A stretch of 64,000 nt of DNA from a virus. This document shows positions 1,539 through 46,336 of the stretch, in pieces. The DNA lies in the IMG/VR virus record IMGVR_UViG_3300036770_008442, positions 64,255 to 128,254 of that record. One strand, written 5' to 3'. The translations under genes were made by a program, and so were the position numbers. How positions within the stretch are numbered: position 1 is the first letter of the stretch; every line of letters starts with the position of its first letter. The notes below the pieces were generated by a model. That model had not been told where the DNA came from. It searched no databases and was given only the letters and a program-made list of their open reading frames with translations.

Positions 1539-1971
1539 TTTCCCCGAAAAATACGACTATATAAAAATCTTTTGGATTCATTGATTTTTTCATATCAATA
1601 GACAGTGAAACGGGATTGCTTGGAATAATTCTTTCCCCCTTTTTGCACAAAACCAAAGATGGATCAATATTCTCGCCTGGAACTATATCAAACTCAAACT
1701 CTTTTGGTGGATCTGGATATTGATCACAATAAATTTCAATTTCTATATTCGATATTTTGAAGGATAAGTCCTGAATTCCCTCTTTGGATCTTTGAATACT
1801 AACTTGATATTCAATCTCACACTTAAGGTCATCGACGTCAGTCAATTCGGGAGGTCTATTTGACAATTCAACATCCAAAAAAGAAAGATCACAAAAAAAA
1901 GTGTGATCACTCGAAAAGTTTTTATTTTTAGAAACGCTGTATGAATTATAGTCCTGAATTCTAGCCATCAA
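1531..1971 (-). CDS. Hypothetical protein (146 aa), late-promoter associated
   Basis: ORF preceded by GATATATA at 1992-1999. Confidence 0.75.
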   Translation of the reverse strand: MMARIQDYNSYSVSKNKNFSSDHTFFCDLSFLDVELSNRPPELTDVDDLKCEIEYQVSIQRSKEGIQDLSFKISNIEIEIYCDQYPDPPKEFEFDIVPGENIDPSLVLCKKGERIIPSNPVSLSIDMKKSMNPKDFYIVVFFGENE

Positions 1972-1991
1972 AAATCGGGTATTTTACTGCC

Positions 1992-1999
1992 TATATATC
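1992..1999 (-). promoter_or_regulatory. Late promoter motif GATATATA
   Basis: Recurrent octamer about 20 nt upstream of the start codon; analogue of the T4 late TATAAATA. Confidence 0.6.
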
Positions 2000-2062
2000 C
2001 AATAAAAAAATACTATTTCTTTCCAAATCGGATTTTCTAAATCTGAATATATAAAATAAAAT

Positions 2063-2800
2063 ATGCGTACCATGAAGGATTTAAAAGCAACATGGTTTAT
2101 CGAAAATCCTATTGATCAAGAACATAAGCAATATCTGCTGCTTGACTTTCTAAAGAGTGTTAATCAGGATATTTACGACGAAGACATTTACTATCCGATT
2201 AAAAGAATTTTTTCTATGATCAAGGAACTCACCTATTCTAGAATTCTAATTCAGGAAGGAAATGAAATTTCATCCAAAAAATTAAACAGAGAATTAGAAG
2301 CCATCAACAAATACATTCAGGAAGCAAACTTATCAACAGAGGAAAAAGAGGAATGTCTAAAAATCATCGAATCTTCCCTCTCAATTTTATACAAGTATGC
2401 AGAACTCGGAATGGAGTTATGGAAAAATATAGAGAAGAGAATCAGAACTTATGATCTGCAAACAGCCAAAAAATCAGATCATCAAGAATATGGGATCTTG
2501 CTTTTTCGAAACATGGCTTCGGATAAAATTTATCCCTACTGGTGGCAAAAAGAGAAAACAAATTCAGGATCAAAGGGTGGAACCCTTTTAAAATATGTAG
2601 AAATTAAAAATCCATATTTTATATTATCCTATGAGTTCTGTGTTCATGAAATTATCGAATCCATGGGATTAAAAGATAAAAGGGATCCAGTAATCACGAT
2701 CATGGAGGTATATGAAGATTTCAATAAAGAATCTGTGATTTTGAAAATAGCAAAAGAGCTATTCATAAGAAAAATATACCTCGAGGAGAATCAAAGATAA
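2063..2800 (+). CDS. Hypothetical protein (245 aa); the only substantial plus-strand gene
   Basis: Long ORF filling an otherwise empty gap; AATATATA at 2046-2053 upstream; start may be the ATG at 2072. Confidence 0.8.
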   Translation: MRTMKDLKATWFIENPIDQEHKQYLLLDFLKSVNQDIYDEDIYYPIKRIFSMIKELTYSRILIQEGNEISSKKLNRELEAINKYIQEANLSTEEKEECLKIIESSLSILYKYAELGMELWKNIEKRIRTYDLQTAKKSDHQEYGILLFRNMASDKIYPYWWQKEKTNSGSKGGTLLKYVEIKNPYFILSYEFCVHEIIESMGLKDKRDPVITIMEVYEDFNKESVILKIAKELFIRKIYLEENQR

Positions 2801-2802
2801 AT

Positions 2803-3471
2803 TTATTGGGATTCTTTCCAAACATTATCTATGAGTGAAAATCCTTGGTGTTGAACTGCTAATCTTTCTTTGATGATTGCAAATCTAGAATTTCCACTAG
2901 ACCAAAAAGCCTCATTAAACCAAATATCAGGACTATCCCAAGATAAATTTTCTAAAGCATTTAAAATAATCTGTCTAGAACTTTGGGGTATAACCACACA
3001 ATGGGCCAGGATAATCTTGTTAGTGATGTAGAAATTCAGATTCTCCTGATCAAACTCTATATAAGGAGATTGTAAATGACCATTAACGTATCTCGATCCA
3101 AGAGAAAGATAATGCGCCTTCTTTTCATTCAAAAATTCCAAACCCTCCTTCAGTCTATTCACAAATTCATCATGGCTACATACTAGGATACAATCACATT
3201 CACAGAGTACTAAAGCTTCAATGTCCTCTGTAAAATTATCCAGGATAGCCTTTTTAAAAGACTGAAATGCTCCATAATGACCCGGACCGTGATTAGTAAA
3301 AGGTGATTGAGTTACGGCAGGAATTTTTTTCCAATCTTCTCCAGAGTATCTTTGATTGATCTGTTGAATGTAATTAATACCCATATTTCCCAAAGGAGAA
3401 AGGGATTTAATAGATTCCTGTTCTCTCTCCGTGTCTACCTCCGTTAGAATATGAACCAGTTTTATATTCAT
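2803..3471 (-). CDS. Putative glycosyltransferase (GT-A fold, GT25-like)
   Basis: GHYGAFQSF...ALVLCECDC resembles the GT25 G-x-x-G...S / EDD motifs, plus PDIW and AVQHQGFSLID. Start moved to ATG 3471 because 3489-3559 is a tRNA-like element. Confidence 0.55.
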   Translation of the reverse strand: MNIKLVHILTEVDTEREQESIKSLSPLGNMGINYIQQINQRYSGEDWKKIPAVTQSPFTNHGPGHYGAFQSFKKAILDNFTEDIEALVLCECDCILVCSHDEFVNRLKEGLEFLNEKKAHYLSLGSRYVNGHLQSPYIEFDQENLNFYITNKIILAHCVVIPQSSRQIILNALENLSWDSPDIWFNEAFWSSGNSRFAIIKERLAVQHQGFSLIDNVWKESQ

Positions 3472-3488
3472 GATAACAATTAAAATTG

Positions 3489-3559
3489 ACAGGATAGCAG
3501 GATTCGAACCTGCATTTCTGCACACTTCACAGATGCGCTACCCATTGCGCTTTATCCCG
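3489..3559 (-). tRNA. tRNA-like element with a tRNA-Pro-type body and non-canonical anticodon loop (possible pseudo-tRNA)
   Basis: CGGGATA-AA-GCGC AATGGGTA GCGC-A-TCTGT GAAGTGT GCAGA-AAT-GCAGG TTCGAAT CCTGC-TATCCTG-T folds as a cloverleaf with a perfect T-arm; lacks U8, U33 and an encoded CCA. Confidence 0.7.
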
Positions 3560-3977: not shown

Positions 3978-4631
3978 TTAAGTGAATGCTTTAGCTTCTT
4001 TTGCTCCCCCAGTAGATAAACTAGATAATCTAGATAGAAAATCATCCACCATATTACCCGATTTTTCAGATTGACCAGATTTAGACTGAAGAGCGCTTTC
4101 CATTTTAGACCTTTCTGATGGAGTAAGATTTTTAGCAAATTGATCCTGAGATTCTGGTTGAAACCCAGTAAAGGCTTCCAAATAAAATTTTTCTAGGGAT
4201 TTTCTAAATTGTTCCCTTTTAACTTGATTACTAAATAATTCGGAGATAGTTTTATAAATCAGCCCTTTATTATCGATCCCCAATTTTTCAGCTATTCCAT
4301 CTAGACCCATTTCTACTAAAAATTCCATAGTTGCGTCTGCTGCTTTAGGAGCTAAATATCCAGCTTTAGCTTTACCCTGGAAGATAATTATGAAATAATC
4401 TGTTACTGGTATCTGCTCAATAAAATTCTGAACTAGTTTACTAAAAATAGAATCTTCATTTATTCCTAGCATAGAAAGAAGATAAGCAGTAACCTTAGCC
4501 TTAAAAACATCTCCTATGGAAGTTGCAATAGAACTAAATCCAGATCCAATAGACCCAAAGAAATCCTTTAAGTCCTCATTCATATCAAGGGATCCGTTTT
4601 TATTTATACGAAATTCATGAAAAGTCATCAT
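3978..4631 (-). CDS. Hypothetical protein, possible head-packaged protein
   Basis: ORF-track 3978..4661; start likely MMTFHEFR at 4631, since GATATATA lies at 4652-4659. Confidence 0.75.
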   Translation of the reverse strand: MMTFHEFRINKNGSLDMNEDLKDFFGSIGSGFSSIATSIGDVFKAKVTAYLLSMLGINEDSIFSKLVQNFIEQIPVTDYFIIIFQGKAKAGYLAPKAADATMEFLVEMGLDGIAEKLGIDNKGLIYKTISELFSNQVKREQFRKSLEKFYLEAFTGFQPESQDQFAKNLTPSERSKMESALQSKSGQSEKSGNMVDDFLSRLSSLSTGGAKEAKAFT

Positions 4632-4677
4632 AGATGAATATCTTTTTCTCTTATATATCAAAAGAAAATAGATTTAT

Positions 4678-6072
4678 TTAATCCATGAAAGAGTCAACTA
4701 CTTTTTGTCTATAATTTATCTTGTCAATCTTTATATCTGGATTTTTTAGAGCTTCTTTATCACGATAAACTATCTCATGGGGTAGAAGAACGTCAAAAGT
4801 ATCCTTCAGAATTTTTTTATTCTTTCTCCATTCTAAAGGAAGGTGTAAAGCAAATCTAACTATGTCTAAATTTAAAAAAGGATTACGTAGCTCAAGAGTG
4901 TGGGCCATTGAAAGTTTATCCAGTCTAGGCAAATGATAATAGCTCAGCTCGTCAAAAATATCTGATTTTTGGGAGTCATACTCGTTGATTCTTCTATATC
5001 CTCCAAAAAGTTCGTCTGATCCATCCCCGCTTAGAACTATTCGATACCCTCCAAATTTTTTAACAGCTTCAAAAAGATAGTACTGAGGTATAACAGATCC
5101 AAGATCTATAGGTCCCTCGTTCCATTTTTTGTAAATCTCAGAGTTTTTCTCCTCTGTCATAGAGTAATCCAAAAAAGTAATCTCTCGGGAAAGTCTTGAA
5201 GCAAGAAGATTGACATATTCAGTCTCTCCATTTTCAATACTAAACCATTTTACATCAGATCCAATCTGATCCAAAATGGATGCTATAATAGAAGAATCTA
5301 GTCCCCCGGAAACAAGAAGAGAGACGGGGAAATCCTTGGAAATAAGACGATTTGAAACAGATTCAAACATTTTACCCCAGAGCCACTCCATGTGATCTTC
5401 ATAGCTTGCCCCGATCAATTCCGAAATAGGATGATCAAATCCCTTATAATATTCGGGATATTCCGTTTTAAATTCCGGGTAATCTAATTGGTAATAATAG
5501 AGAGTGTTTGGTAGAAATCTTTTGACCTCCTGGTATGTGGTTCGATTGTTTGTGTTATATCCCCACTTTCTAATCTGTCCCATAGTCACTTGATCTATCT
5601 CGCTATTAGAACTAGTTAAGCCCTTAATCTCAGAACAGATCTCGCCTAAGTTATTGTAATATAAAGGTTTTTTGCCTAATGGATCGGTAAAGCAAATAAC
5701 GCTATTATCCGTAGCATCATAGATAACGATTGCCCAAAAACCATCCCAGGTTTGGATTTCAGGCAAAAAGAGGGAGCAAAACATTTCAAAAGATCCGCCC
5801 CTATATCTAGAAAAAAGTTGATACAAATATTCACTATCTGACGAAAATCTTTCCCTGTCATAGTTGAATATTTCACCATTGAATAGAAGAAATATTCCCT
5901 CTGAAATTTCAAAAGGCTGTTTCCATGAATCCCCATCCTTAGTTTGAATGGGAAGTCTGTGGTGACACAAATACCATTCATTTTTAGAGATTACATTTCT
6001 TTCTATTCCTCGATGACTAATTGAATTTAGGTTAGTCTCCGTTCCTGTTTGAGTGATTAATATTCCGCACAT
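4678..6072 (-). CDS. asnB: Asparagine synthetase B-like glutamine-dependent amidotransferase
   Basis: N-terminal MCGI Ntn nucleophile, HRG, FNGEIFNY, SGGLDSS PP-loop, SGDGSDELFGGY, ELRNPFL. Confidence 0.92.
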   Translation of the reverse strand: MCGILITQTGTETNLNSISHRGIERNVISKNEWYLCHHRLPIQTKDGDSWKQPFEISEGIFLLFNGEIFNYDRERFSSDSEYLYQLFSRYRGGSFEMFCSLFLPEIQTWDGFWAIVIYDATDNSVICFTDPLGKKPLYYNNLGEICSEIKGLTSSNSEIDQVTMGQIRKWGYNTNNRTTYQEVKRFLPNTLYYYQLDYPEFKTEYPEYYKGFDHPISELIGASYEDHMEWLWGKMFESVSNRLISKDFPVSLLVSGGLDSSIIASILDQIGSDVKWFSIENGETEYVNLLASRLSREITFLDYSMTEEKNSEIYKKWNEGPIDLGSVIPQYYLFEAVKKFGGYRIVLSGDGSDELFGGYRRINEYDSQKSDIFDELSYYHLPRLDKLSMAHTLELRNPFLNLDIVRFALHLPLEWRKNKKILKDTFDVLLPHEIVYRDKEALKNPDIKIDKINYRQKVVDSFMD

Positions 6073-9956: not shown

Positions 9957-10222
9957 TAAATATTTGTCTTATCCCCGGATTTATCCTTAGCCTCCATAGC
10001 CAAAGCCAATTTGTTCAGTAAAGCGGGGAGTTGGCCATAGAGAAGTGCTTGCTTCTTAATTGAAGCTGCCTTAGCAGAGGTCGTTGTTGCTTTTTTTTCC
10101 ACTGCAGATTCGGCTGAAATTTCTGAAAATTTTAAATTAACATCAGCTTTAGCCTTTGCTAAATCTTCATTAACTCCCTCGTTAATGCTGAATTCTGATA
10201 GATTTGTAATCAATTTATTCAT
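9953..10222 (-). CDS. Small helical protein, possible head-packaged protein
   Basis: Likely start MNKLITNLSEFSINEGVNE at 10222 (ORF-track start 10258 lies deep in the upstream gene). Confidence 0.7.
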   Translation of the reverse strand: MNKLITNLSEFSINEGVNEDLAKAKADVNLKFSEISAESAVEKKATTTSAKAASIKKQALLYGQLPALLNKLALAMEAKDKSGDKTNIY

Positions 10223-11105
10223 ATCTTCTAGCAATAGTAATTTTTGTTCTAAGATCACGGATCTGTCTCATTAAATTTTCTCTAAAATCCTTGAATGCTT
10301 TACTTGCATCCTTATTCTCAGATCCTTTTAAAACTCCCGAAGCTTCTAGACGATCTCTTTCAGTATCGATAAATGCGTATCTCTCGTTTCTCTCTGTCAT
10401 CAAAACCTTTATTAAGACTTTAATTTGTGATTTTTCTAATCCTTGAACATATTTAGTAAACTGAGCTGCATTCATGGCTAGAATGGGATCTAAGGAAAAT
10501 TTAGGTCTGTCCAAATTATAGACCTCCTCTTCATCATCTCTTGCTACTGATTTAGAAAAATCAAGTCTCCCAAATTTCTTTACAAAATTAGCATCTTTTT
10601 CTTTTGCAGAAATTAGTGCTTTCTTATATTTACGATAAAGTTCATCTGAAACTGTTTCATCCGTTAAATCCTTTGAAATCTTGTAGATCTTTTCAGCTAA
10701 ATCTGCTTCTAACCTAGATTTTTTAGAATTCCAGTAAGAAATTAATTTAGAATTTTCTCCAACTATTTCTTCTACCTTATTATCTATTTTAGCTATTTCA
10801 GCCGCCTTTTTCTTATTCAGAGCAGAGATTAAACCTCTATTTCTGTCTATCATTCTCTCCAATTTTTTATACTCCGCTGCATCATTTTTTGTCTGACCTT
10901 TTTGGATATCCAAAGCATCTATCTCGGTTTGAATCTCGTTCCAATCTTTAATATATTTCGTTTCTATCGTATTAATTTTCGACAGAAGATTATCTATTTT
11001 AGAAATAGATCCGCCAAAATTAGAACTGAGCCAGTTCATAATCTTATCCATAGAACTGGACTCGTTTACAGATCTATTATCCCATTCAGAAAATCTTAAA
11101 ATCAT
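10215..11105 (-). CDS. Coiled-coil protein, probable internal head protein (paralog of 11107..12204)
   Basis: MILRFSEW...VNES N-terminus; MDKIMNWLSSNFGGSISKI aligns with LDSIKNFLSKNLLGGLSRL. Confidence 0.7.
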   Translation of the reverse strand: MILRFSEWDNRSVNESSSMDKIMNWLSSNFGGSISKIDNLLSKINTIETKYIKDWNEIQTEIDALDIQKGQTKNDAAEYKKLERMIDRNRGLISALNKKKAAEIAKIDNKVEEIVGENSKLISYWNSKKSRLEADLAEKIYKISKDLTDETVSDELYRKYKKALISAKEKDANFVKKFGRLDFSKSVARDDEEEVYNLDRPKFSLDPILAMNAAQFTKYVQGLEKSQIKVLIKVLMTERNERYAFIDTERDRLEASGVLKGSENKDASKAFKDFRENLMRQIRDLRTKITIARRYE

Positions 11106-11106
11106 C

Positions 11107-12204
11107 TTATTTAATTTTTTTTATAGCGGATTCAACCTGTTGTACATCAGGAACTGGATAAATCTCCAATAGTAGCATTTCACTTGTTAAATTCTTATCA
11201 TCAGAAACCGCTTTATTGATCTTTTTAAATAATTCAGACAAAGAGGGTTGATCCTTAATTTTACCCGAGATTTCTTTTCTGCTGTTACCCAAATCAGAAT
11301 AAAGTTTTATCAGATTATCACAAGAATCAATTTCCTCAGAAAACCCATATATTTTTTTAAGATCTTGATCGAAATAGCTCTGTTTATAAGAAACACCTTT
11401 AGAATTAACATGTTTAATTTTTTTTAGCAGATCTTCCAAATAGTCCTTTAATTCTTTTTTTAGATCTTTAGCCCTATCCTGTGTTTTTTTCTTAAGCTTC
11501 ACAATGGTATCCGGATCGTTTTCTTTAATTACCTTCTTCAGTTCTATTATATTCGATAGATCTTTTTCGTCAATGTTCAATTCTTTATTCTTATTAGTTT
11601 GGGCTTTGAATCTATTAACTAATTCCTCAGCCTTTGATTGAGCTGATGCTAATCTTTTTTCTAATTTTTTAATCTCTACCGCATCCTCACTTCTTTTTTT
11701 AGCATTATCATATTCAAATTTGGCTAGTTCAGAAGCATCTTCTGCCAATCCCGCCTCAAAATATTCCTTCCTTCTTTCATTATCGCCTATTGTTTTTTCA
11801 GCAAGTTTTAGACCTTTTTCGATCTGTGTTTTTTTGAACTTAACCAAAGAAGAATATTCTTTTTTCTTTCTTTCCATTTCATTTTGTACTTGAAGAATAG
11901 CTGATTTTTCACCGGATCCCCTGGTCTTGTCAAGCTTTAATTCCAAAAAATCAATGTCATCCGAAATTTTATCCTTCGCTAAAATTAATTCTTTGTTTAT
12001 TGCAAGATTGTTTTTTCTAATATCGTCTAATATATTTAAGCGGGAGAGACCACCTAATAGGTTCTTTGATAAGAAATTCTTAATAGAATCCAATCCGCTG
12101 GATTCATTTAGTTGCTCATTAATATATTTTACATCACTGCGATTCAGAGGCTCCGTTAGATCCCTTATGATTAAAAAATCGCGATGACTTAAGATTTTTT
12201 TCAT
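11107..12204 (-). CDS. Coiled-coil protein, probable internal head protein
   Basis: INEQLNESS site; late promoter at 12228-12235; lies directly downstream of the capsid gene. Confidence 0.7.
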   Translation of the reverse strand: MKKILSHRDFLIIRDLTEPLNRSDVKYINEQLNESSGLDSIKNFLSKNLLGGLSRLNILDDIRKNNLAINKELILAKDKISDDIDFLELKLDKTRGSGEKSAILQVQNEMERKKKEYSSLVKFKKTQIEKGLKLAEKTIGDNERRKEYFEAGLAEDASELAKFEYDNAKKRSEDAVEIKKLEKRLASAQSKAEELVNRFKAQTNKNKELNIDEKDLSNIIELKKVIKENDPDTIVKLKKKTQDRAKDLKKELKDYLEDLLKKIKHVNSKGVSYKQSYFDQDLKKIYGFSEEIDSCDNLIKLYSDLGNSRKEISGKIKDQPSLSELFKKINKAVSDDKNLTSEMLLLEIYPVPDVQQVESAIKKIK

Positions 12205-12227: not shown

Positions 12228-12235
12228 TATATATC
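12228..12235 (-). promoter_or_regulatory. Late promoter motif GATATATA
   Basis: Octamer about 24 nt upstream of 12204, just past the capsid terminator. Confidence 0.65.
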
Positions 12236-28057: not shown

Positions 28058-29050
28058 TTAAAGATAACTTTTTTCCGGTATCTGAATCTTTTTTTCCCCC
28101 ATATACTCATAGATATCATTCGGATCAACAGGTACAGCACCCGAGATTCGACAAACCAAAGATCCGGAGAGATTAGAAACATCTATACAATCAGTAAGGC
28201 TAAATCCGCTCAAGAACATGAGCATAAAAACAGCACTAACTGTGTCACCTGCTCCAGAGACGTCCACTATATTAATCGAATGACCATTTACACTAAAGTT
28301 TGAATCATTCGAAGATAAAGCCATTCCCCTTTCAGACATGGTGATCAATGCATATTGGATGTCATATTTAGAAATTAGATTCTTTGCAAGATCAAAAATC
28401 TCAGCGACTGAAAGATTCTGGTTTTGGTTGATTTTCAATCCATCCTTAAGTTCCGATAGATTGGGCTTCAAAATGGTAGTTCCCTGATATTTAGTAAAAT
28501 CCTTATCCTTAGGATCGGTTAAAACTGGGATTTTTAAGGTCTTACATCTACTAATAATTTCAGAGATCAAACCCCTAGTTAAAACTCCCTTGCCATAATC
28601 CTGAAGAATAACACCGTCTAAATTTTGACAAATGGAATCAAAGGATTCTAGAATAGAGAAAAACACATTCTCTGGAATATCAGAGGTTGTTTCATTATCT
28701 ATTCTTGTTATCTGATGACCATTTCCTATGATTCGGGTTTTTACTGTAGTTGGCCTTTGATCAGAAATTAGGATCGGGGTAATCCCAGCCTGTTCTAATA
28801 AAACATTTAGAATATTAGAATACTCATCCTCTCCTGAAACTGAAATTAAATAGCAGGTGGAACCAAAAACAGAAATATTCTGGGCAACATTAGCAGCTCC
28901 GCCCAAGCAATAGATCTCATCCTCTTTCAGAACAACAGGAACGGGAGCTTCGGGGGAAACCCGGTTAACTTTCCCATAAACGTAATGATCTAAAATGGAA
29001 TCTCCGATTACTGCGATCCTTTTATTCGCAAAAACATTCACAAAATTCAT
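28058..29050 (-). CDS. hldE: D-glycero-beta-D-manno-heptose-7-phosphate kinase (HldE/RfaE domain I, PfkB family)
   Basis: GDSILDHY..G...RVSPEAPVPV, GGAANVAQN, TTVKTR, QDYGKG, DPK, KPNLSE, DVSGAGDTV. Confidence 0.92.
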   Translation of the reverse strand: MNFVNVFANKRIAVIGDSILDHYVYGKVNRVSPEAPVPVVLKEDEIYCLGGAANVAQNISVFGSTCYLISVSGEDEYSNILNVLLEQAGITPILISDQRPTTVKTRIIGNGHQITRIDNETTSDIPENVFFSILESFDSICQNLDGVILQDYGKGVLTRGLISEIISRCKTLKIPVLTDPKDKDFTKYQGTTILKPNLSELKDGLKINQNQNLSVAEIFDLAKNLISKYDIQYALITMSERGMALSSNDSNFSVNGHSINIVDVSGAGDTVSAVFMLMFLSGFSLTDCIDVSNLSGSLVCRISGAVPVDPNDIYEYMGEKKIQIPEKSYL

Positions 29051-29060
29051 TTATCAACTG

Positions 29061-30665
29061 TTAAAGAGTAAACTGTTCTGGTTCATCTTCCCCTCCCTCA
29101 CCCCCTCCTTTTTCCTTAGCTTCCTTCTCCGCTTGCTCTGCTTCTTTTTTCTTATATTCCTCATTTTTCCGATATTCATCCATCGATAATCCTAGCCATC
29201 TCTTAATTAAAAATTCCTTATCAAAATAAGGTTCCTCTTCATCCCCTATTCTTTGATTCATTTCCGACATAGAGTTTACAAATTCAGATCTCTTTGTTAA
29301 ATTTTGGAGATTTAAGAATTCTTCAAAGATGTTTTCCCTTACATAATCCAGTCCTAGATTAGACTTAAAGGATCGGTCTTTAGATAATTCTGGAAAATCT
29401 AAACACATTTGGATATAAAGAGGCTTAACCAATATTTCCTGAAAAACCGATCTAATTCTGGTTAAAAACTTTTCATAACGGATTTCATCCCTCTCTAGCT
29501 GATCTATACTAATCTGATAATTAGCCGGGGTTCCACCTCTAAAAGAAAATCTAGCATATGGAATTTTTGAATCTAGTTTGAGCTTATTGTAGAAATAAAC
29601 AACATTTTCCATCACATTAAAATCTGGTCCATTGGGATCTAAAGTCTCGATAGAAGGGGACTGTCCATCTTTTTCAGGAAAAAGATAGTTCTTGTAGAAT
29701 TGCACCTTAGGTCTACCATTGACTGTCAATTCTCCAGAGAAATCATTCAGTTCTATCTCCTCCTTGTAAATAGACATTAATTGACCCAAAGTTTGCATGG
29801 CTTTCTGCTGGGATTGGCTTCCAACCGGTATAACAAATTTGAGACGATATGAAGCATTCATAACATTCCAAATAACCCGGGTATTCTCCATAATTCTAAG
29901 AATATTGTACGATCTCACAAGTCTTTCTACATAACTAACTCTAGAGATCGTATTTCCCTTAGCATAAGACAAATAAATCACCTGCTCATTTTGGAGCTTT
30001 CTGGTCATATTATTATCATTTGGATATTGGATCCAGATCTGTTTAAATTCACCATTTGGCTGAGGCTCTGTTGCTGGCTGAAGGGAAGTCGGATCCAATT
30101 CTTTGAATCCGACTATCTTTTTACCATTTGTAGAATAAACAATCTCAAAAGCCAAAAATCCATCAATAAGAAACTGTCTGAAATATTGCCAAGCTAAAAC
30201 TGATTGTTGAAACCCAAACATCATATACAGATTCCTATATGATTCATCTATTCGATCTAATATTTCTTTCTTAATTTCTATATTAGCAATGCCGGGATAT
30301 GAAAAGAAGTTCTTATCGTCATAATTTATAGCATCATCTGTCAAGGTATCCAGAATAAAATCAATCTCCCCGTTGAGAGAAAATTTTCTTAGAAAATCCC
30401 TTTTGCCCAGATAGTCTTTATCAAAATAAGCAATATATTTTCTAATTTTTGTGTCCTGATATCCCAAAGTCCAATAGAAGGCGGAATTTTCAGTAAATCC
30501 GGTTCCTTGCTCTTTGAAAAAATTAGATTCAGTTTGGCCAATAGCTTGGGAATTCCGGATTACCATATCCTCGTATTTCATCCCAAACTTCCCTATGCGA
30601 CTCAGGTTTTTATATAAGACGTTTAAAAAACTTCTTTCCTGAACGTTATCCAAAAATCCGGCCAT
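29061..30665 (-). CDS. gp20: Portal protein, T4 gp20 family (paralog 2)
   Basis: FRQFLIDG, SYVERLVRSYNILRIME...I, IETL, YFYNKLK...KIPYARF, RDEIRYEKFLTRIRSVF. Confidence 0.9.
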   Translation of the reverse strand: MAGFLDNVQERSFLNVLYKNLSRIGKFGMKYEDMVIRNSQAIGQTESNFFKEQGTGFTENSAFYWTLGYQDTKIRKYIAYFDKDYLGKRDFLRKFSLNGEIDFILDTLTDDAINYDDKNFFSYPGIANIEIKKEILDRIDESYRNLYMMFGFQQSVLAWQYFRQFLIDGFLAFEIVYSTNGKKIVGFKELDPTSLQPATEPQPNGEFKQIWIQYPNDNNMTRKLQNEQVIYLSYAKGNTISRVSYVERLVRSYNILRIMENTRVIWNVMNASYRLKFVIPVGSQSQQKAMQTLGQLMSIYKEEIELNDFSGELTVNGRPKVQFYKNYLFPEKDGQSPSIETLDPNGPDFNVMENVVYFYNKLKLDSKIPYARFSFRGGTPANYQISIDQLERDEIRYEKFLTRIRSVFQEILVKPLYIQMCLDFPELSKDRSFKSNLGLDYVRENIFEEFLNLQNLTKRSEFVNSMSEMNQRIGDEEEPYFDKEFLIKRWLGLSMDEYRKNEEYKKKEAEQAEKEAKEKGGGEGGEDEPEQFTL

Positions 30666-30685
30666 TTTATTTAATTAACTTTTGT

Positions 30686-32335
30686 TTATGCTGTGGGTTC
30701 TTCAGTTCCTTCCGCGGGTGGAGCGGGCTCGCTCGGGGTGGCTGCGGGAGCTTCTGGCTGCTCGCCTTCTGGACTTTGTCCTTCAGCTTCTCCAGATTTT
30801 TCGCTCTCTTTCTTTTCCTTTTTTCTTTTCTCTTTTGCTTCCATGTTTGCCTTAATATCATCCTCGGTCATTCCCAGATAATTTTCTATCAGATAAGCAA
30901 GAGAAAAGAAAGGTTTTCCATCTGCATCTGTTAATCCATATAGAGACGAAATAGATTCTTTTTTCTTGGACATAGTTTCCATCTCCTGATTAATTCGAAA
31001 TGGATTATCAGAAACAAAGGTTAATCCTAATTGGCTTTTAAACAGATGATCCTTTTCTAGTTCTGGAAAATCTTTACACATCTGGATCCAAAGTGGCTTT
31101 ATGAGGATATCCTGGAAAATAGATCTAAGCCTTGTAATAAACTTAGAGAATCTTATTTCCTCCTTATCCAAACCCTCTGCAGAATTTGAATATTTTCCAA
31201 TTGATCCACCGTCCGGTCCCTGAAATCTCGAAAATGGAATTTTAGATTCTTGAGCAAGCTTATCGAAGAAATAAGCTAAAGGACCAGGGTCATTTAAATT
31301 GGGTCCAGCGTTGCTGATTGGTTCTATTGTAGGAGTACCATTAACACCAGAAGGCATCAGATAATTTTTATAGAACTGAATCTTAGGTCTTCCGTCTATA
31401 GTTAATTCTCCGCTTTCGTCGTTGAATCTGATATCCTCTTTATAGATACTCATTAATTCTCCCAAAGTCTGCATAGATTTTTGAGGAGATTTGGTACCAA
31501 TAGGAACGGTCATTTTCATTCTAAATGAAGCATTCATCACGGACCAAATCACCCGAGTATATTCGATAATTCGGAGAACATTGTATGGTCTAATCAGTCT
31601 TTCGGTATAGCTAATTCTAGAAACCGAATTTCCCTTTGCGTATGAAATGTAAATAATCTGGGAATCGTATAAAAGCCTTCTTCTATTCTCATCCTTTGGG
31701 TATTGGTACCAAACATTTAAATAAGTTCCATCTTTTTGTTTTTCAACAGAAGGCATCAAAGTTGTTGCATCTAACTCCTTAAATCCAATAATTTCTTTCC
31801 CGTTATCATTGTAAATAATTTCAAAAGCTAAAAATCCATCGACCATTAACTGTCTGAAATATTGCCAAGCACTGATATCATCAGTGAAGCCAAACATATC
31901 ATACAGCTTTTTATAGTTAAGATCTATTCTATCGATTACTTTTTCTTTGATACCCGTTAGATTTAAAAAAGCAGGGTAGGCAAAAAAATTAAAAGAATCA
32001 TAAGATATAGCCTCGTCACAAACAGTATCTAAAATGTATTCAATCTCTGGATTAAGAGCAAACTTTCTCAGATAATCTCTTTTTCCTGCATAATCCTTAT
32101 CGAAATACCCAATGAATTGCTTTGTTGAAGTGTCCTGTCTGGCTAAAGAATACAACATGGCCTCATCTTCGATGGGACCTTTTTTCATGAATTCCGCCTC
32201 GACCTGACCGATGGCCTGGGAATTTCTAACCACTAAATCTCCGTACCTCATACCAAAGGTACTAAGAGACTTCACAGAATCTCTGATTCTTTGAAATACT
32301 GGATTCCCCTGTGGGCTTTCTGTAAATCCTGCCAT
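30686..32335 (-). CDS. gp20: Portal protein, T4 gp20 family (paralog 1)
   Basis: PEIE...DEAI, FRQLMVDG, SYTERLIRPYNVLRIIE, YFFDKL...KIPFSRF, EEIRFSKFITRLRSIF. Confidence 0.9.
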   Translation of the reverse strand: MAGFTESPQGNPVFQRIRDSVKSLSTFGMRYGDLVVRNSQAIGQVEAEFMKKGPIEDEAMLYSLARQDTSTKQFIGYFDKDYAGKRDYLRKFALNPEIEYILDTVCDEAISYDSFNFFAYPAFLNLTGIKEKVIDRIDLNYKKLYDMFGFTDDISAWQYFRQLMVDGFLAFEIIYNDNGKEIIGFKELDATTLMPSVEKQKDGTYLNVWYQYPKDENRRRLLYDSQIIYISYAKGNSVSRISYTERLIRPYNVLRIIEYTRVIWSVMNASFRMKMTVPIGTKSPQKSMQTLGELMSIYKEDIRFNDESGELTIDGRPKIQFYKNYLMPSGVNGTPTIEPISNAGPNLNDPGPLAYFFDKLAQESKIPFSRFQGPDGGSIGKYSNSAEGLDKEEIRFSKFITRLRSIFQDILIKPLWIQMCKDFPELEKDHLFKSQLGLTFVSDNPFRINQEMETMSKKKESISSLYGLTDADGKPFFSLAYLIENYLGMTEDDIKANMEAKEKRKKEKKESEKSGEAEGQSPEGEQPEAPAATPSEPAPPAEGTEEPTA

Positions 32336-32361: not shown

Positions 32362-32970
32362 TTACTTTGACTTTAATTTCGATCTATATTCACTATATAT
32401 CGAATTTAAAGGAAGTCCCTGTATAAACGAATCTGAAAGATATGCTATTTTACACCAGTCCAGATAATCTACTGTTTTGATACTCCTAAAGTTTTCTTTC
32501 TTAAATCCAGTCACGGCAAAGGAATATCCAGTTCCTTCCAAAAGTCTAGATAATACATTTCCATTTAACTGAATAGGGATCTGGTCTCCCGGAATATTGG
32601 TCTCGTTGTCTTTAATTTTGTCATAAAACTGATTGAATAGTCTTAATAATATCTGACCCCGATAATCGGGAGGAATAATGTTCAAATCAATTGATTTAAG
32701 TATTTTACCAGATTTTATTTCCTCCTCACCTAAAAAAATAAACAAAGGGTATCTATTAATGTACCTAATTTTATCAGAAATACGACTGTTAGTGGCATAT
32801 TCCCCGGTATAAATTTTACCAGGTATCAGGAAAGAACCAATTTTTTCCTTACCTCCCTTTCCCTCTATCCCGTATTTTTCTTTAAAAAATTTATTCGTTG
32901 CATCCGAAAGAGCAGATAAGGAAGGAACCCCTTCTCTGTAATCTTTTATCTGCTGTTCAAAAGGCTTCAC
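32362..32970 (-). CDS. DNA end protector protein (gp2-like)
   Basis: YINRYPLFIF...IDLNIIPPDYR..ILLRL matches the gp2 pattern; adjacent to gp4 as in T4-like phages. Confidence 0.6.
   Translation of the reverse strand: MKPFEQQIKDYREGVPSLSALSDATNKFFKEKYGIEGKGGKEKIGSFLIPGKIYTGEYATNSRISDKIRYINRYPLFIFLGEEEIKSGKILKSIDLNIIPPDYRGQILLRLFNQFYDKIKDNETNIPGDQIPIQLNGNVLSRLLEGTGYSFAVTGFKKENFRSIKTVDYLDWCKIAYLSDSFIQGLPLNSIYSEYRSKLKSK
32394..32401 (-). promoter_or_regulatory. Late promoter motif GATATATA (portal operon)
   Basis: Octamer in the 3' end of the gp2-like gene, upstream of the portal start at 32335. Confidence 0.55.
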
Positions 32971-33452
32971 TTGTCATTAAATAAAAAGTTCTCATCTACT
33001 ATCCCAAACTTGTATCCTCGAATTTCAGCCCAAATTTTAGCAGATTTGAATTTAGCTTGATTGGTAATCCAAATCTGCATTTTTTGGTTATATGATTTGA
33101 GCTTATTTAATGTGCTTGTTCCCTCGAAAACAGGTTTTTTAAATTGAGATTCGGGTTTTACCTCTAAAATCCATTCTTGCTTTTCCCCATTTTCTTTTTG
33201 GATCATAATATAAAAATCCACAAAATAATTGTGGTTTTTTTTATCCAACGGATTAAAATATGGAATTTTTATTGGTTCAGAACTCCATTTTAATATTAAA
33301 CTATTGGTATCACAATACTTGCAAAATCTAAATTCCCAAGAAGATCTGCACACTATTTTATTAATGTCTCCTATATACTTATCTGGATTTTTGGGAACAT
33401 AAAGTCCGGATTTATATCTTCCGTTGGGCTTTACTTTCTTAATATCAGACAT
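32967..33452 (-). CDS. gp4: Head completion nuclease (gp4, TnsA-like)
   Basis: PKNPDKYIGD...RSSWE..FC..CD......WSSE...IPY......YFVDF...EVKP. Confidence 0.9.
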   Translation of the reverse strand: MSDIKKVKPNGRYKSGLYVPKNPDKYIGDINKIVCRSSWEFRFCKYCDTNSLILKWSSEPIKIPYFNPLDKKNHNYFVDFYIMIQKENGEKQEWILEVKPESQFKKPVFEGTSTLNKLKSYNQKMQIWITNQAKFKSAKIWAEIRGYKFGIVDENFLFNDK

Positions 33453-33455
33453 TCT

Positions 33456-33812
33456 TTAAACATTGTAGGAATTATCCTCCCCTGTTATATATGAAAAAGG
33501 AATAGTCTTAGGTGATTTGGGAGGGTGAATTTTTTTCCATCCTTTTGCAAATCCATTTTTAGCTATCTGAGTGTAGTAAGCAAAGGGATTATTAGACTTA
33601 GTGGGATCAAATCTGTTCCAATATCTGCAGAGATCCTCCATGGCAAAAGCCATACAATCCTCTTTATCTTCTGGATCCCGGTAAGCCATTTTTTTGGATA
33701 TACCCTGAATCATCAATGAAAACATTTTAATCGTATCAGGGGTTAATTGACCCCTTTCTTTGGACTCTAAAATTGCTTTCATGAGATCCACATTTTTAAC
33801 ATAATCAGCCAT
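33456..33812 (-). CDS. gp55: Late transcription sigma factor (gp55-like)
   Basis: YVKNVDL, EDC...AME...RY...FDPTKSNNPFAYYTQIA; start reassigned to MADYV at 33812 (ORF-track start 33932). Confidence 0.85.
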   Translation of the reverse strand: MADYVKNVDLMKAILESKERGQLTPDTIKMFSLMIQGISKKMAYRDPEDKEDCMAFAMEDLCRYWNRFDPTKSNNPFAYYTQIAKNGFAKGWKKIHPPKSPKTIPFSYITGEDNSYNV

Positions 33813-33832
33813 CGTACTTAAGGGATTCTTTA

Positions 33833-33861
33833 TTTTTAGAATTAACCCAAAAGTTAGTTTC
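33833..33861 (-). promoter_or_regulatory. Candidate ECF-type (middle) promoter GAAACT-N17-TAAAAA driving gp55
   Basis: Exact motif and spacing about 21 nt upstream of the gp55 ATG. Confidence 0.6.
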
Positions 33862-33864
33862 GGG

Positions 33865-34044
33865 TTAATCTTTTTCCTCCAAATTTTCATCCTCATCGGA
33901 AATGAGCGAATCCCCAGAGGGTTTTTTGCCATCCGGAGCTACGCTCATTCTACCTTCTATATTATCTACAAAAGGCTTTGGAGAATCGGATTGGTCCGCT
34001 GCCGAAGGAGCAAAAGACCAAACCCTACTTAATATTTTTTTTAG
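33865..34044 (-). CDS. Putative -1 frameshift extension (59 aa) of the 841-aa protein
   Basis: Open -1 frame after A AAA AAC TAA: LKKILSRVWSFAPSAADQ...MSVAPDGKKPSG...LEEKD*. Confidence 0.55.
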   Translation of the reverse strand, partial: LKKILSRVWSFAPSAADQSDSPKPFVDNIEGRMSVAPDGKKPSGDSLISDEDENLEEKD

Positions 34045-45187: not shown

Positions 45188-45766
45188 TCAGAGGAAAAGA
45201 TCCTGCCAATAATCAGATTTCCAAGTTGTTTCCAAAGTGTAAATGGAATCACCAGCATCGTAGCTTAGTCCCATGGAATTGATTGCCTCCACTGGAAAAC
45301 AATTATTCAGATTTACCCTTCTGAAAACATCTCCTTGTTTATTAAAAATAGAAATTATCATAGATCCAACATAATCCCTTTTTAATCCCATGGCTCCCGT
45401 CAAGGGATTGTAAATAAGATCAGACCATTGGCGTAGAATCTTATAAACAGTCATGGAATTATTCTCATTTAAATTTACCTCAAAGGACACGTTGAATTGA
45501 ACATCAGAAGTTGAGGGTTCACCTCCTGAATACCTTCTTTCTGCGAATTTGTAAAACTGGGTAACGGGAGCGTTGGGCTGAAGATCAATCTGAAGGGCGC
45601 TGATGTTTTTAACCTGCTGGGTTAAAATGCCTTCTCCATTAAAAGTCACATTAGCTTCAGTTATAGCAGCTGGAGGATTAATTAAAACCTCGAACTGGTT
45701 TAAGAATACAGGTTCGTAATTATTCCTGGCTGCTTTTGAATTATTAAAATGAGGTAAACCTGCCAT
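45188..45766 (-). CDS. gp19: Tail tube protein, gp19 family (paralog 2)
   Basis: EPVFLNQFEV, LRQWSDLIYNPLTG..G.K.DY, CFP...Y; follows the sheath gene. Confidence 0.85.
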   Translation of the reverse strand: MAGLPHFNNSKAARNNYEPVFLNQFEVLINPPAAITEANVTFNGEGILTQQVKNISALQIDLQPNAPVTQFYKFAERRYSGGEPSTSDVQFNVSFEVNLNENNSMTVYKILRQWSDLIYNPLTGAMGLKRDYVGSMIISIFNKQGDVFRRVNLNNCFPVEAINSMGLSYDAGDSIYTLETTWKSDYWQDLFL

Positions 45767-45781
45767 TTAAAAGAATTTTTT

Positions 45782-46336
45782 TTAGAGAAATAGATCTTGC
45801 CAATAATCAACCGCCCAAGTCATGTTTATCTCGTATAAGTTAGTACCATTCACATAATCGAGTTCCATGGGATCAATAGCTTTTAAAGGAAAACAGTCTT
45901 TACAAGTTATTCTCCTAAAAACATTACCGTTTTTGTTGAAAACTGAAATTATAATGGTTCCTGTATAGTCTGCTTTGACCCCCTGAGCTCCTGTTAAAGG
46001 ATTATAAATCAAATCTGTCCATTGTCTGAGGGTTTTAAACACATACATAGAATTTGCATCATCCAGATTAACAGTGAATTTAAGAGCAAGGTCTAATGTT
46101 GTAGTGTCAGGTTTACCACCTGCATAATTTCTTTTAGCAAACTTATATTTTTGAGCAACAAATCCTGGGTTTTTATCAACATCAAGACCACCAACAGACA
46201 CCACATGTTCTAATAGAATAGGGCCTCCTGCAACAGCAGCAGGTGGTACAACATTCACCTCAAACTGATTGAGATAAACAGGCTCAAATTTATTGATCGA
46301 ATTCAGTGAATTTTGATAATGTGATAATCCAGCCAT
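45782..46336 (-). CDS. gp19: Tail tube protein, gp19 family (paralog 1)
   Basis: Near-colinear paralog of 45188..45766; GATAAATA at 46356-46363. Confidence 0.85.
   Translation of the reverse strand: MAGLSHYQNSLNSINKFEPVYLNQFEVNVVPPAAVAGGPILLEHVVSVGGLDVDKNPGFVAQKYKFAKRNYAGGKPDTTTLDLALKFTVNLDDANSMYVFKTLRQWTDLIYNPLTGAQGVKADYTGTIIISVFNKNGNVFRRITCKDCFPLKAIDPMELDYVNGTNLYEINMTWAVDYWQDLFL

Follow-up and report, generated by a model that had tools for sequence, protein, structure and literature searches.

Two tandem portal genes, both under purifying selection, in a lineage of uncultured aquatic jumbo phages

Introduction

No machine of the tailed phages and herpesviruses is more conserved than the portal, which in all descriptions, as far as we know, is a ring made from twelve copies of a single protein; identical subunits are assumed in all models known to us of capsid nucleation, DNA gating and the 12:5 symmetry mismatch at the packaging motor. 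In T4, the portal ring is a homododecamer of gp20 (PMC4493910; PMC12929587), and passages of a review of jumbo-phage genomics treat the portal as a single gp20 orthologue. Here, we describe two tandem genes, named U (upstream) and D (downstream), that each encode a full-length portal protein of the T4 gp20 type. They occupy positions 29061-32335 of a 64,000-nucleotide (nt) stretch of viral DNA, referred to below as the window, which is the second half of a 128,254-bp viral contig (IMG/VR record IMGVR_UViG_3300036770_008442) with an estimated completeness of 46%. The source of the genome is an uncultured aquatic jumbo phage.

The full-text literature, searched with subscription journals largely outside its coverage, contained no account of a heteromeric portal or of a portal gene pair, and the matches to "two portal proteins" were, judged by their titles and abstracts, comparisons between the portals of different phages. 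The closest parallels are found in other assemblies. T4 gp23 and gp24 represent a duplication of the capsid protein into hexamer and vertex-pentamer specialists, and the proteasome, CCT and Mcm are hetero-oligomeric rings that were built from paralogs of a homomer. In T4, gp24 occupies 11 of the vertices (PMC12929587), and the TET peptidase is heterododecameric (PMC4220976). As with U and D, gp23 and gp24 are copies of a duplicated virion structural protein that were both kept, each with a fixed place in one assembly; they form separate capsomers, whereas U and D, which have the portal fold, would share one ring in the reading favored below. In TET, the proteasome, CCT and Mcm, a self-assembling subunit was likewise duplicated and both copies ended up within one particle, but these are not viral portals, and their co-assembly has been demonstrated, whereas that of U and D is inferred. 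No precedent for paralogs sharing one portal ring was found in the literature searched.

Two Full-Length Portal Genes of the gp20 Type

Positions 30686-32335, minus strand: U, the upstream portal paralog, 549 amino acids (aa), full-length T4 gp20 type, transcribed first.
Positions 30666-30685, minus strand: U–D spacer between the U stop and the D start, 20 nt, A/T-rich, without a promoter-like motif or terminator.
Positions 29061-30665, minus strand: D, the downstream portal paralog, 534 aa, full-length T4 gp20 type.

Both proteins start with MAGF and are colinear over 503 residues (51% identity, 73% positives, 8 gaps); the only parts that cannot be aligned are the low-complexity, charged C-terminal tails. 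Against the Pfam family Portal_T4 (PF07230, cut-off 22.9 bits), D scores 201.1 bits (E 3.5e-59) over profile positions 9-433 of 433 and U 197.7 bits (E 3.8e-58) over positions 7-431 of 433, and PHROG 213 (portal protein) is matched by each of them. AlphaFold2 models of U and D (mean predicted local distance difference test (pLDDT) 76.8 and 75.7, predicted template-modeling score (pTM) 0.69 and 0.67, respectively) have their helices and strands in identical order. The top PDB matches of both models, obtained with Foldseek, are chains of T4 gp20 (9MKB, 6UZC, 9LU7, 3JA7), with E values of 3.6e-18 for U and 9.3e-20 for D, template-modeling (TM) scores of 0.5-0.69 and an identity to gp20 of 15-21% in the structural alignments. 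The domain limits of gp20 were taken from PMC4493910 (Sun et al. 2015) and the residue register from HMMER alignments of U and D to 3JA7 and 6UZC, which run from gp20 residue 250/251 to 511/514, i.e., from the stem through the crown. With these limits, wing, stem, clip, tunnel loop and crown follow in gp20 order in both predicted models, the same layout as in T4 gp20 (PF07230; 3JA7, 6UZC, 9MKB, 9LU6/9LU7).

Because the Pfam and PHROG matches, the gp20 alignments and the matches of the models to PDB structures all concur, U and D are correctly called gp20 homologs. The pair had been picked out beforehand in a reading of the sequence alone (the original prediction), which described two full-length gp20 homologs of 534 and 549 aa, colinear from MAGF onwards yet clearly diverged; coordinates, family matches, models and alignment bear out this description throughout. 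T4 has one portal gene, whereas the lineage of the window has two tandem paralogs.

Conservation of the Pair across Related Loci

IMG/VR was scanned with D; from the 197 relatives obtained, the best 80 loci were retained (the close loci). A deeper sister group of 80 loci was found with P0121, a representative that is sister to the U clade. All counts across these loci are phylogenetically non-independent. In 73 of the 80 close loci, the D-type gene has a U-type gene immediately upstream, and in the remaining 7 the contig ends within 371 nt of the D start; the U-type genes are 71-88% identical to U, and the D-type genes 74-89% to D. All 80 loci of the deeper group carry two tandem portal genes, with identities of 54-59% to U and 51-58% to D. 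A duplication that was recent and confined to the close relatives of the window is thereby ruled out.

Both genes are complete in 61 close and 66 deeper loci, and both are intact in 60 and 65, respectively. In these intact pairs, the spacer between U and D measures 2-23 nt in the close loci and 2-11 nt in the deeper ones. With the two groups combined, the pair is present in 153/160 loci, which are all those with room for both genes, and it is complete in 127 and intact in 125; at no locus with room for both was either copy lost. The rule of one portal gene per genome that applies to T4-type portals thus does not hold for the window and 153 related loci.

The sole lesions in the 127 complete pairs are one in-frame TAG codon in each of two U genes:

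Locus L078, positions 4373-5863: U gene of the close group, single in-frame TAG at codon 201.
Locus L134, positions 1542-3035: U gene of the deeper group, single in-frame TAG at codon 328.

A suppressor tRNA was sought in the window and in L078 and L134, the latter two being short loci, and none was found. The TAG codons could stem from sequencing error, amber variants or occasional read-through.

The original prediction had also raised the possibility that the duplication was an assembly chimera. A 1813-nt contig of another sample (run X3) matches positions 30150-31962 with zero differences and therefore spans the U–D junction. Runs X4, X5 and X7 contain pieces of both genes at an identity of at least 99%, none of which, among the pieces listed, bridges the junction. 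The junction-spanning contig, together with more than 150 independent contigs that carry the pair, rules out both a chimera and a single gene that was split in two.

Selection on the Two Copies and History of the Duplication

Selection was analyzed on 45 distinct close pairs (990 comparisons), and the ratio of nonsynonymous to synonymous change (dN/dS) was taken from the 18 comparisons in which synonymous change was unsaturated. The median dN/dS was 0.010 for D and 0.015 for U. For dN, the medians across all 990 comparisons were 0.162 (D) and 0.156 (U), and the two were correlated with r = 0.96. Sites were classified on 86 distinct pairs from both groups: 129 are conserved and identical in both paralogs, 49 are conserved only in U, 31 only in D, and 8 are type II sites, i.e., conserved in both with a different residue. 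Among 101 strictly classed sites that are conserved in the single-copy outgroups (type II sites apart), 90 were kept in both copies, 5 in U only and 6 in D only. Judged by these sequences, neither copy is in decay, and the few ancestral residues that were lost are shared out evenly between the two.

The tree comprised 99 rows, and all single-copy sequences fall outside the clade of U and D. One clade unites the D genes of both groups and another the U genes of both groups together with P0121, and the two clades are sisters; each of these three branches has a support of 99 in the Shimodaira–Hasegawa-like approximate likelihood-ratio test (SH-aLRT). The U and D subtrees mirror each other, and the stems that follow the duplication are of similar length (0.23 and 0.19). 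At three indel sites, U and D show a fixed difference in each of the two groups, none of these sites being group-specific, and 8 substitution sites are diagnostic of the paralog versus 1 that is diagnostic of the group. One duplication is preferred because of the well-supported branches and the shared indels and diagnostic sites; it is probably old and common to both groups and, as far as these sequences tell, specific to this clade.

Both paralogs have therefore been kept under purifying selection since the duplication, as seen from the dN/dS values, the 125 intact among 127 complete pairs and the mirrored trees. Phylogeny and dN/dS of both copies across relatives were the checks that the original prediction had put forward, with relaxed selection on one copy as a possible outcome; the copies turned out to form mirrored sister clades, and a dN/dS of about 0.01 in each rules relaxed selection out. 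It is accordingly hardly credible that the pair is a decaying duplicate or an artefact of assembly or binning: the two premature stops would fit such an explanation, but the dN/dS values, the recurrence of the pair in more than 150 independent contigs, the bridging contig of run X3 and the mirrored trees all speak against it.

Relatives with a Single Portal Gene

The closest lineages outside the clade (found with P0123 and P0122) are represented by 15 loci with one portal copy each, 12 of them flanked on both sides and 3 cut at the gene; their portals are 35-48% identical to both U and D. One full portal was present in each of four huge-phage genomes searched. Among GenBank phage records, D matches 1969 records at 1971 places, and the only doubles are LR756501 and LR756503. 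The second match in LR756501 was rejected as a pair, as this genome has one full gene and a 101-aa C-terminal fragment about 57 kb away. This fragment (LR756501.1:15166-15351, locus L091, in a 735-kb huge phage) is a 101-aa open frame that covers only the last 58 positions of the portal profile.

In GenBank, the closest portals are those of uncultured huge phages. That of LR756500 (462 kb) has 45-47% identity and is placed near but outside the duplicated clade in the tree. The portals of the 635-735 kb phages LR756501, LR756503, LR756502, LR756504 and LR745206 and of the Lak phages are 34-37% identical (the former about 35-37%, Lak ~34%). The genome that contains the window is apparently smaller than these huge-phage relatives of 462-735 kb, the longest related contigs being 267-345 kb. 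As a mere hint at a host, a related protein is attributed by one source to a Chitinophagia MAG.

Where the Two Copies Differ

The identity between U and D is distributed unevenly over the portal domains:

Stem helix alpha5: 0.83
Second wing part: 0.59
Clip: 0.58
First wing part: 0.53
N-terminal 82 residues: 0.42
Tunnel loop: 0.36
Crown: 0.27

The strands of the clip are near-identical in U and D (SGEL..G.PK.QF.KNYL). In T4 gp20, these strands make the sole main-chain contacts between neighboring subunits. The clip tip is alike in both copies as well (VGSQSQQKA and IGTKSPQKS). The inner clip loop, which holds 3 of the 8 type II sites, reads LFPEKDGQSP in D and LMPSGVNGTP in U, with E, K and D residues in D and uncharged residues in U, and it is more negative in D in 84/86 pairs. 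The tunnel loop is basic in D and acidic or neutral in U, with net charges in the two groups of +1.0 and +1.9 for D and −0.6 and −1.7 for U, and it is more positive in D in 86/86 pairs. These loop patterns hold in both deep groups, the 86 pairs not being independent events. In the crown (D residues 444-505), the charges swap between the groups (D −1.2 and U −5.0 in one, versus D −7.7 and U +0.8 in the other), with a stable sum of U and D of −6.3 and −6.8. Since the tunnel-loop charge, the inner clip loop and the three fixed indels persist in both groups, the two copies are not interchangeable.

The same paralog-specific features would fit two separate homo-oligomeric rings with different jobs, one of them the true portal and the other stacked upon it, at another vertex, or acting as a transient initiator or plug. 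Nothing that was seen forbids the self-assembly of each copy. We nevertheless regard such an arrangement as unlikely. All portal domains are kept in both copies, under symmetric constraint and with symmetric branches after the duplication, whereas loss or remodelling of the capsid-facing wing, the crown or the terminase-facing clip tip would be expected of a ring away from the portal vertex; the clip tip is alike in U and D. Because the oligomerization elements are the best conserved parts, insulating U from D would need specific changes, and none were seen. Finally, each of five long contigs from the two-portal clade, which represent both groups, has a single full major capsid gene and a single large terminase gene (5/5), absences in these contigs being provisional because they are only 53-85% complete by estimate. 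A second specialised vertex, one of the options offered by the original prediction, finds no support here.

Candidate Signals for Joint Expression

Positions 32394-32401, minus strand: GATATATA, located 59 nt ahead of the start codon of U, a candidate promoter element of the late (gp55) type.
Directly upstream of U: open reading frame (ORF) of 202 aa without a family, the 3′ end of which contains this copy of GATATATA.
Positions 33456-33932, upstream of U: gp55-like late sigma factor, identified by profile matches.
Positions 12228, 16077, 18928, 19688, 23241, 32394, 36594, 39000, 43912, 49670 and 54924, all on the minus strand: GATATATA sites among the 16 of the window.

The element GATATATA was present at most 120 nt upstream of U in 82/82 distinct upstream regions, at conserved offsets. 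The window holds 16 copies, compared with 3.84 expected; all are on the minus (coding) strand, and a count of 16 was reached in 0 of 100 shuffles. Eleven of the 16 sit 17-59 nt upstream of an ORF start, while no copy is found within or between U and D (29061-32335). GATATATA is likely to be the late-promoter element of the gp55-like sigma factor, and because there is a single copy upstream of the pair and a gene for such a factor, U and D appear to be co-transcribed as one late, bicistronic operon. Sigma-70-like promoter sites around the pair are at chance level (21 vs. 21.9 expected), and terminator-like sites show a weak excess (8 vs. 4.4 expected, standard deviation 2.1). One terminator-like site is located inside D (30380-30365, minus strand).

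Another way to account for two genes is that they provide alternative portals, each particle being built with a homomeric ring of either copy or with an unordered mixture, for the sake of redundancy, dosage, or virion types suited to particular hosts or conditions. Both copies look fully competent as portal subunits in sequence and predicted models, and the two loci with a nonsense codon have it in U only, so that U could sometimes be dispensable. Redundancy, however, does not predict the retention of both copies in 153/160 loci at a dN/dS of about 0.01 despite saturated synonymous divergence, nor loops that are paralog-specific and fixed across both deep groups, and one promoter-like motif with a 2-23 nt spacer leaves little room for separate regulation. 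We consider alternative portals improbable.

A Proposed Mixed Portal Ring

In the reading that we favor, and to which we give about an even chance of being right, U and D would both be working portal subunits that a single bicistronic operon supplies jointly in late infection, and they would co-assemble into one mixed ring at the sole portal vertex, most simply in an alternating 6+6 order. The ring-forming core, i.e., the stem helix and the clip strands, has hardly diverged between the two copies, which would still allow U and D to pack against each other. The parts that would have specialised are the tunnel loop, the inner clip loop, the crown and the N-terminus, which would face the DNA or the capsid interior, and basic loops would line the channel alongside acidic or neutral ones.

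Co-expressed paralogs of a homomer usually still cross-assemble. Given one capsid protein and one motor, a single ring of two subunits would be the simplest mechanism, and a hetero-oligomeric ring, which the original prediction had suggested with 6+6 as an example, is also the most economical reading because there is one late operon with a 2-23 nt spacer, the constraint is symmetric and the oligomerization core is the best conserved part. We infer co-transcription, equimolar synthesis, co-assembly and the order of the subunits in the ring; of these, the alternating 6+6 order is attractive but unsupported.

Several observations weigh against a mixed ring of this origin. The across-locus counts are non-independent, as stated above, and the only lesions in the complete pairs, the two TAG codons, both fall in U. 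In an approximately unbiased (AU) test, independent duplications, with U and D of the window's group as a clade, were worse by 34.6 log-likelihood units but were not rejected (p 0.168). There was no sign of complementary changes at the interface that would enforce an alternating order, as there are only 8 strict type II sites and none could be assigned to it. The asymmetry of the clip, with 12 U-only versus 3 D-only sites, is not significant (Fisher p 0.14). Charge compensation in the crown is mixed, with a Spearman coefficient of −0.85 in the deeper group and of +0.53 in the window's own group, and was dropped as support because the correlations are opposite.

A Duplicated Tail-Tube Gene in the Same Clade

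An all-against-all comparison of the ORFs of the 128-kb contig gave five similar pairs. The first is the portal pair (29061-32335, minus strand, 51% identical), and the second is encoded directly downstream of the 1085-aa tail sheath gene:

Positions 45782-46336, minus strand: tail-tube paralog of 184 aa, starting with MAGL.
Positions 45188-45766, minus strand: tail-tube paralog of 192 aa, starting with MAGL, 52% identical to the former.

Two tail-tube copies are present in 5/5 of the long two-portal contigs introduced above, and a single copy in 5/5 long contigs of single-portal relatives and in 4/4 huge-phage genomes. The four huge-phage relatives searched thus have one full portal and one tail-tube match per genome, whereas the lineage of the window has two of each. 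This shared distribution suggests a link between the tube and the portal duplications. Two adjacent tail-tube subunit genes have been described in the tail module of megaphage G (bioRxiv 10.1101/2024.12.16.628780). By that account, phage G is likewise a jumbo phage with two side-by-side tail-tube genes, but it has a single, lambda-like portal gene, whereas here the tube duplication accompanies that of the portal.

Portal rings have 12 subunits and tail tubes 6 per layer. A bolder and rather doubtful proposal is that both DNA-conduit rings turned into two-gene rings on one ancestral branch, with an obligate alternating 6+6 portal and 3+3 tube, which would lower the channel symmetry from C12/C6 to C6/C3. 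If true, basic loops of D would alternate with acidic ones of U in the lining of the portal tunnel, an intrinsic charge pattern by which a very long genome could be gripped and released. We know of no tailed virus with such two-gene portal and tube rings. In T4, the symmetry drops from 12 to 6 between gp13 and gp14, beneath the homododecameric portal (PMC12929587); as a speculation, a portal of two subunits would shift such a step into the portal itself.

Neighboring Genes and Other Similar Pairs

Upstream of U, beyond the gp55-like sigma gene: protein of 841 aa.
Positions 32967-33452, upstream of U: gp4-like head-completion nuclease, identified by profile matches.
Positions 28058-29050, minus strand, downstream of D: PfkB-family sugar kinase.
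Downstream of D, past the PfkB kinase: ATP-dependent DNA ligase.

The pair is found in the head-module and late-gene context of a T4-type portal, with the gp4-like and gp55-like genes, which are T4-type features, beside it, the upstream GATATATA, and the genes for the major capsid protein, prohead protease, large terminase, tail sheath and tail tube all inside the same window. Flanked by the portal pair and the DNA ligase gene, the PfkB kinase gene is located in an otherwise structural and replication region. The sole tRNA detected in the 64-kb window is a tRNA-Thr (anticodon AGT) at 3488-3559, minus strand.

The three remaining similar pairs of the contig are as follows:

Tail-fibre pair.
Positions 10215-11105 and 11107-12204, minus strand: weak pair that adjoins the capsid gene downstream, 27% identical over 177 aa, without a PHROG match.
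Short ORF that resembles the N-terminus of the capsid protein.

The two members of the weak pair may be capsid decoration or vertex proteins. An ORF of about 150-160 aa outside the window (G000:C1:948-1403) has a segment of ~46-65 residues that is 49-56% identical to the N-terminal part of the major capsid protein, and similar ORFs are present at G006:C1:133510-133692 and G007:C1:39268-39408. This segment may be a shared propeptide or a head-targeting segment.

Implications

For annotation, the consequence is that surveys that use the portal as a marker gene will double-count this clade or mix the paralogs. For the biology of the portal, the pair opens the questions of which functions need all twelve subunits and which only six, of whether the ring is ordered or not, and of whether alternating channel loops alter the packaging or retention of a genome of ~270-350 kb. 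A large, widespread clade with two diverged but equally constrained portal genes is a natural test of the assumption that the subunits of the portal are identical.

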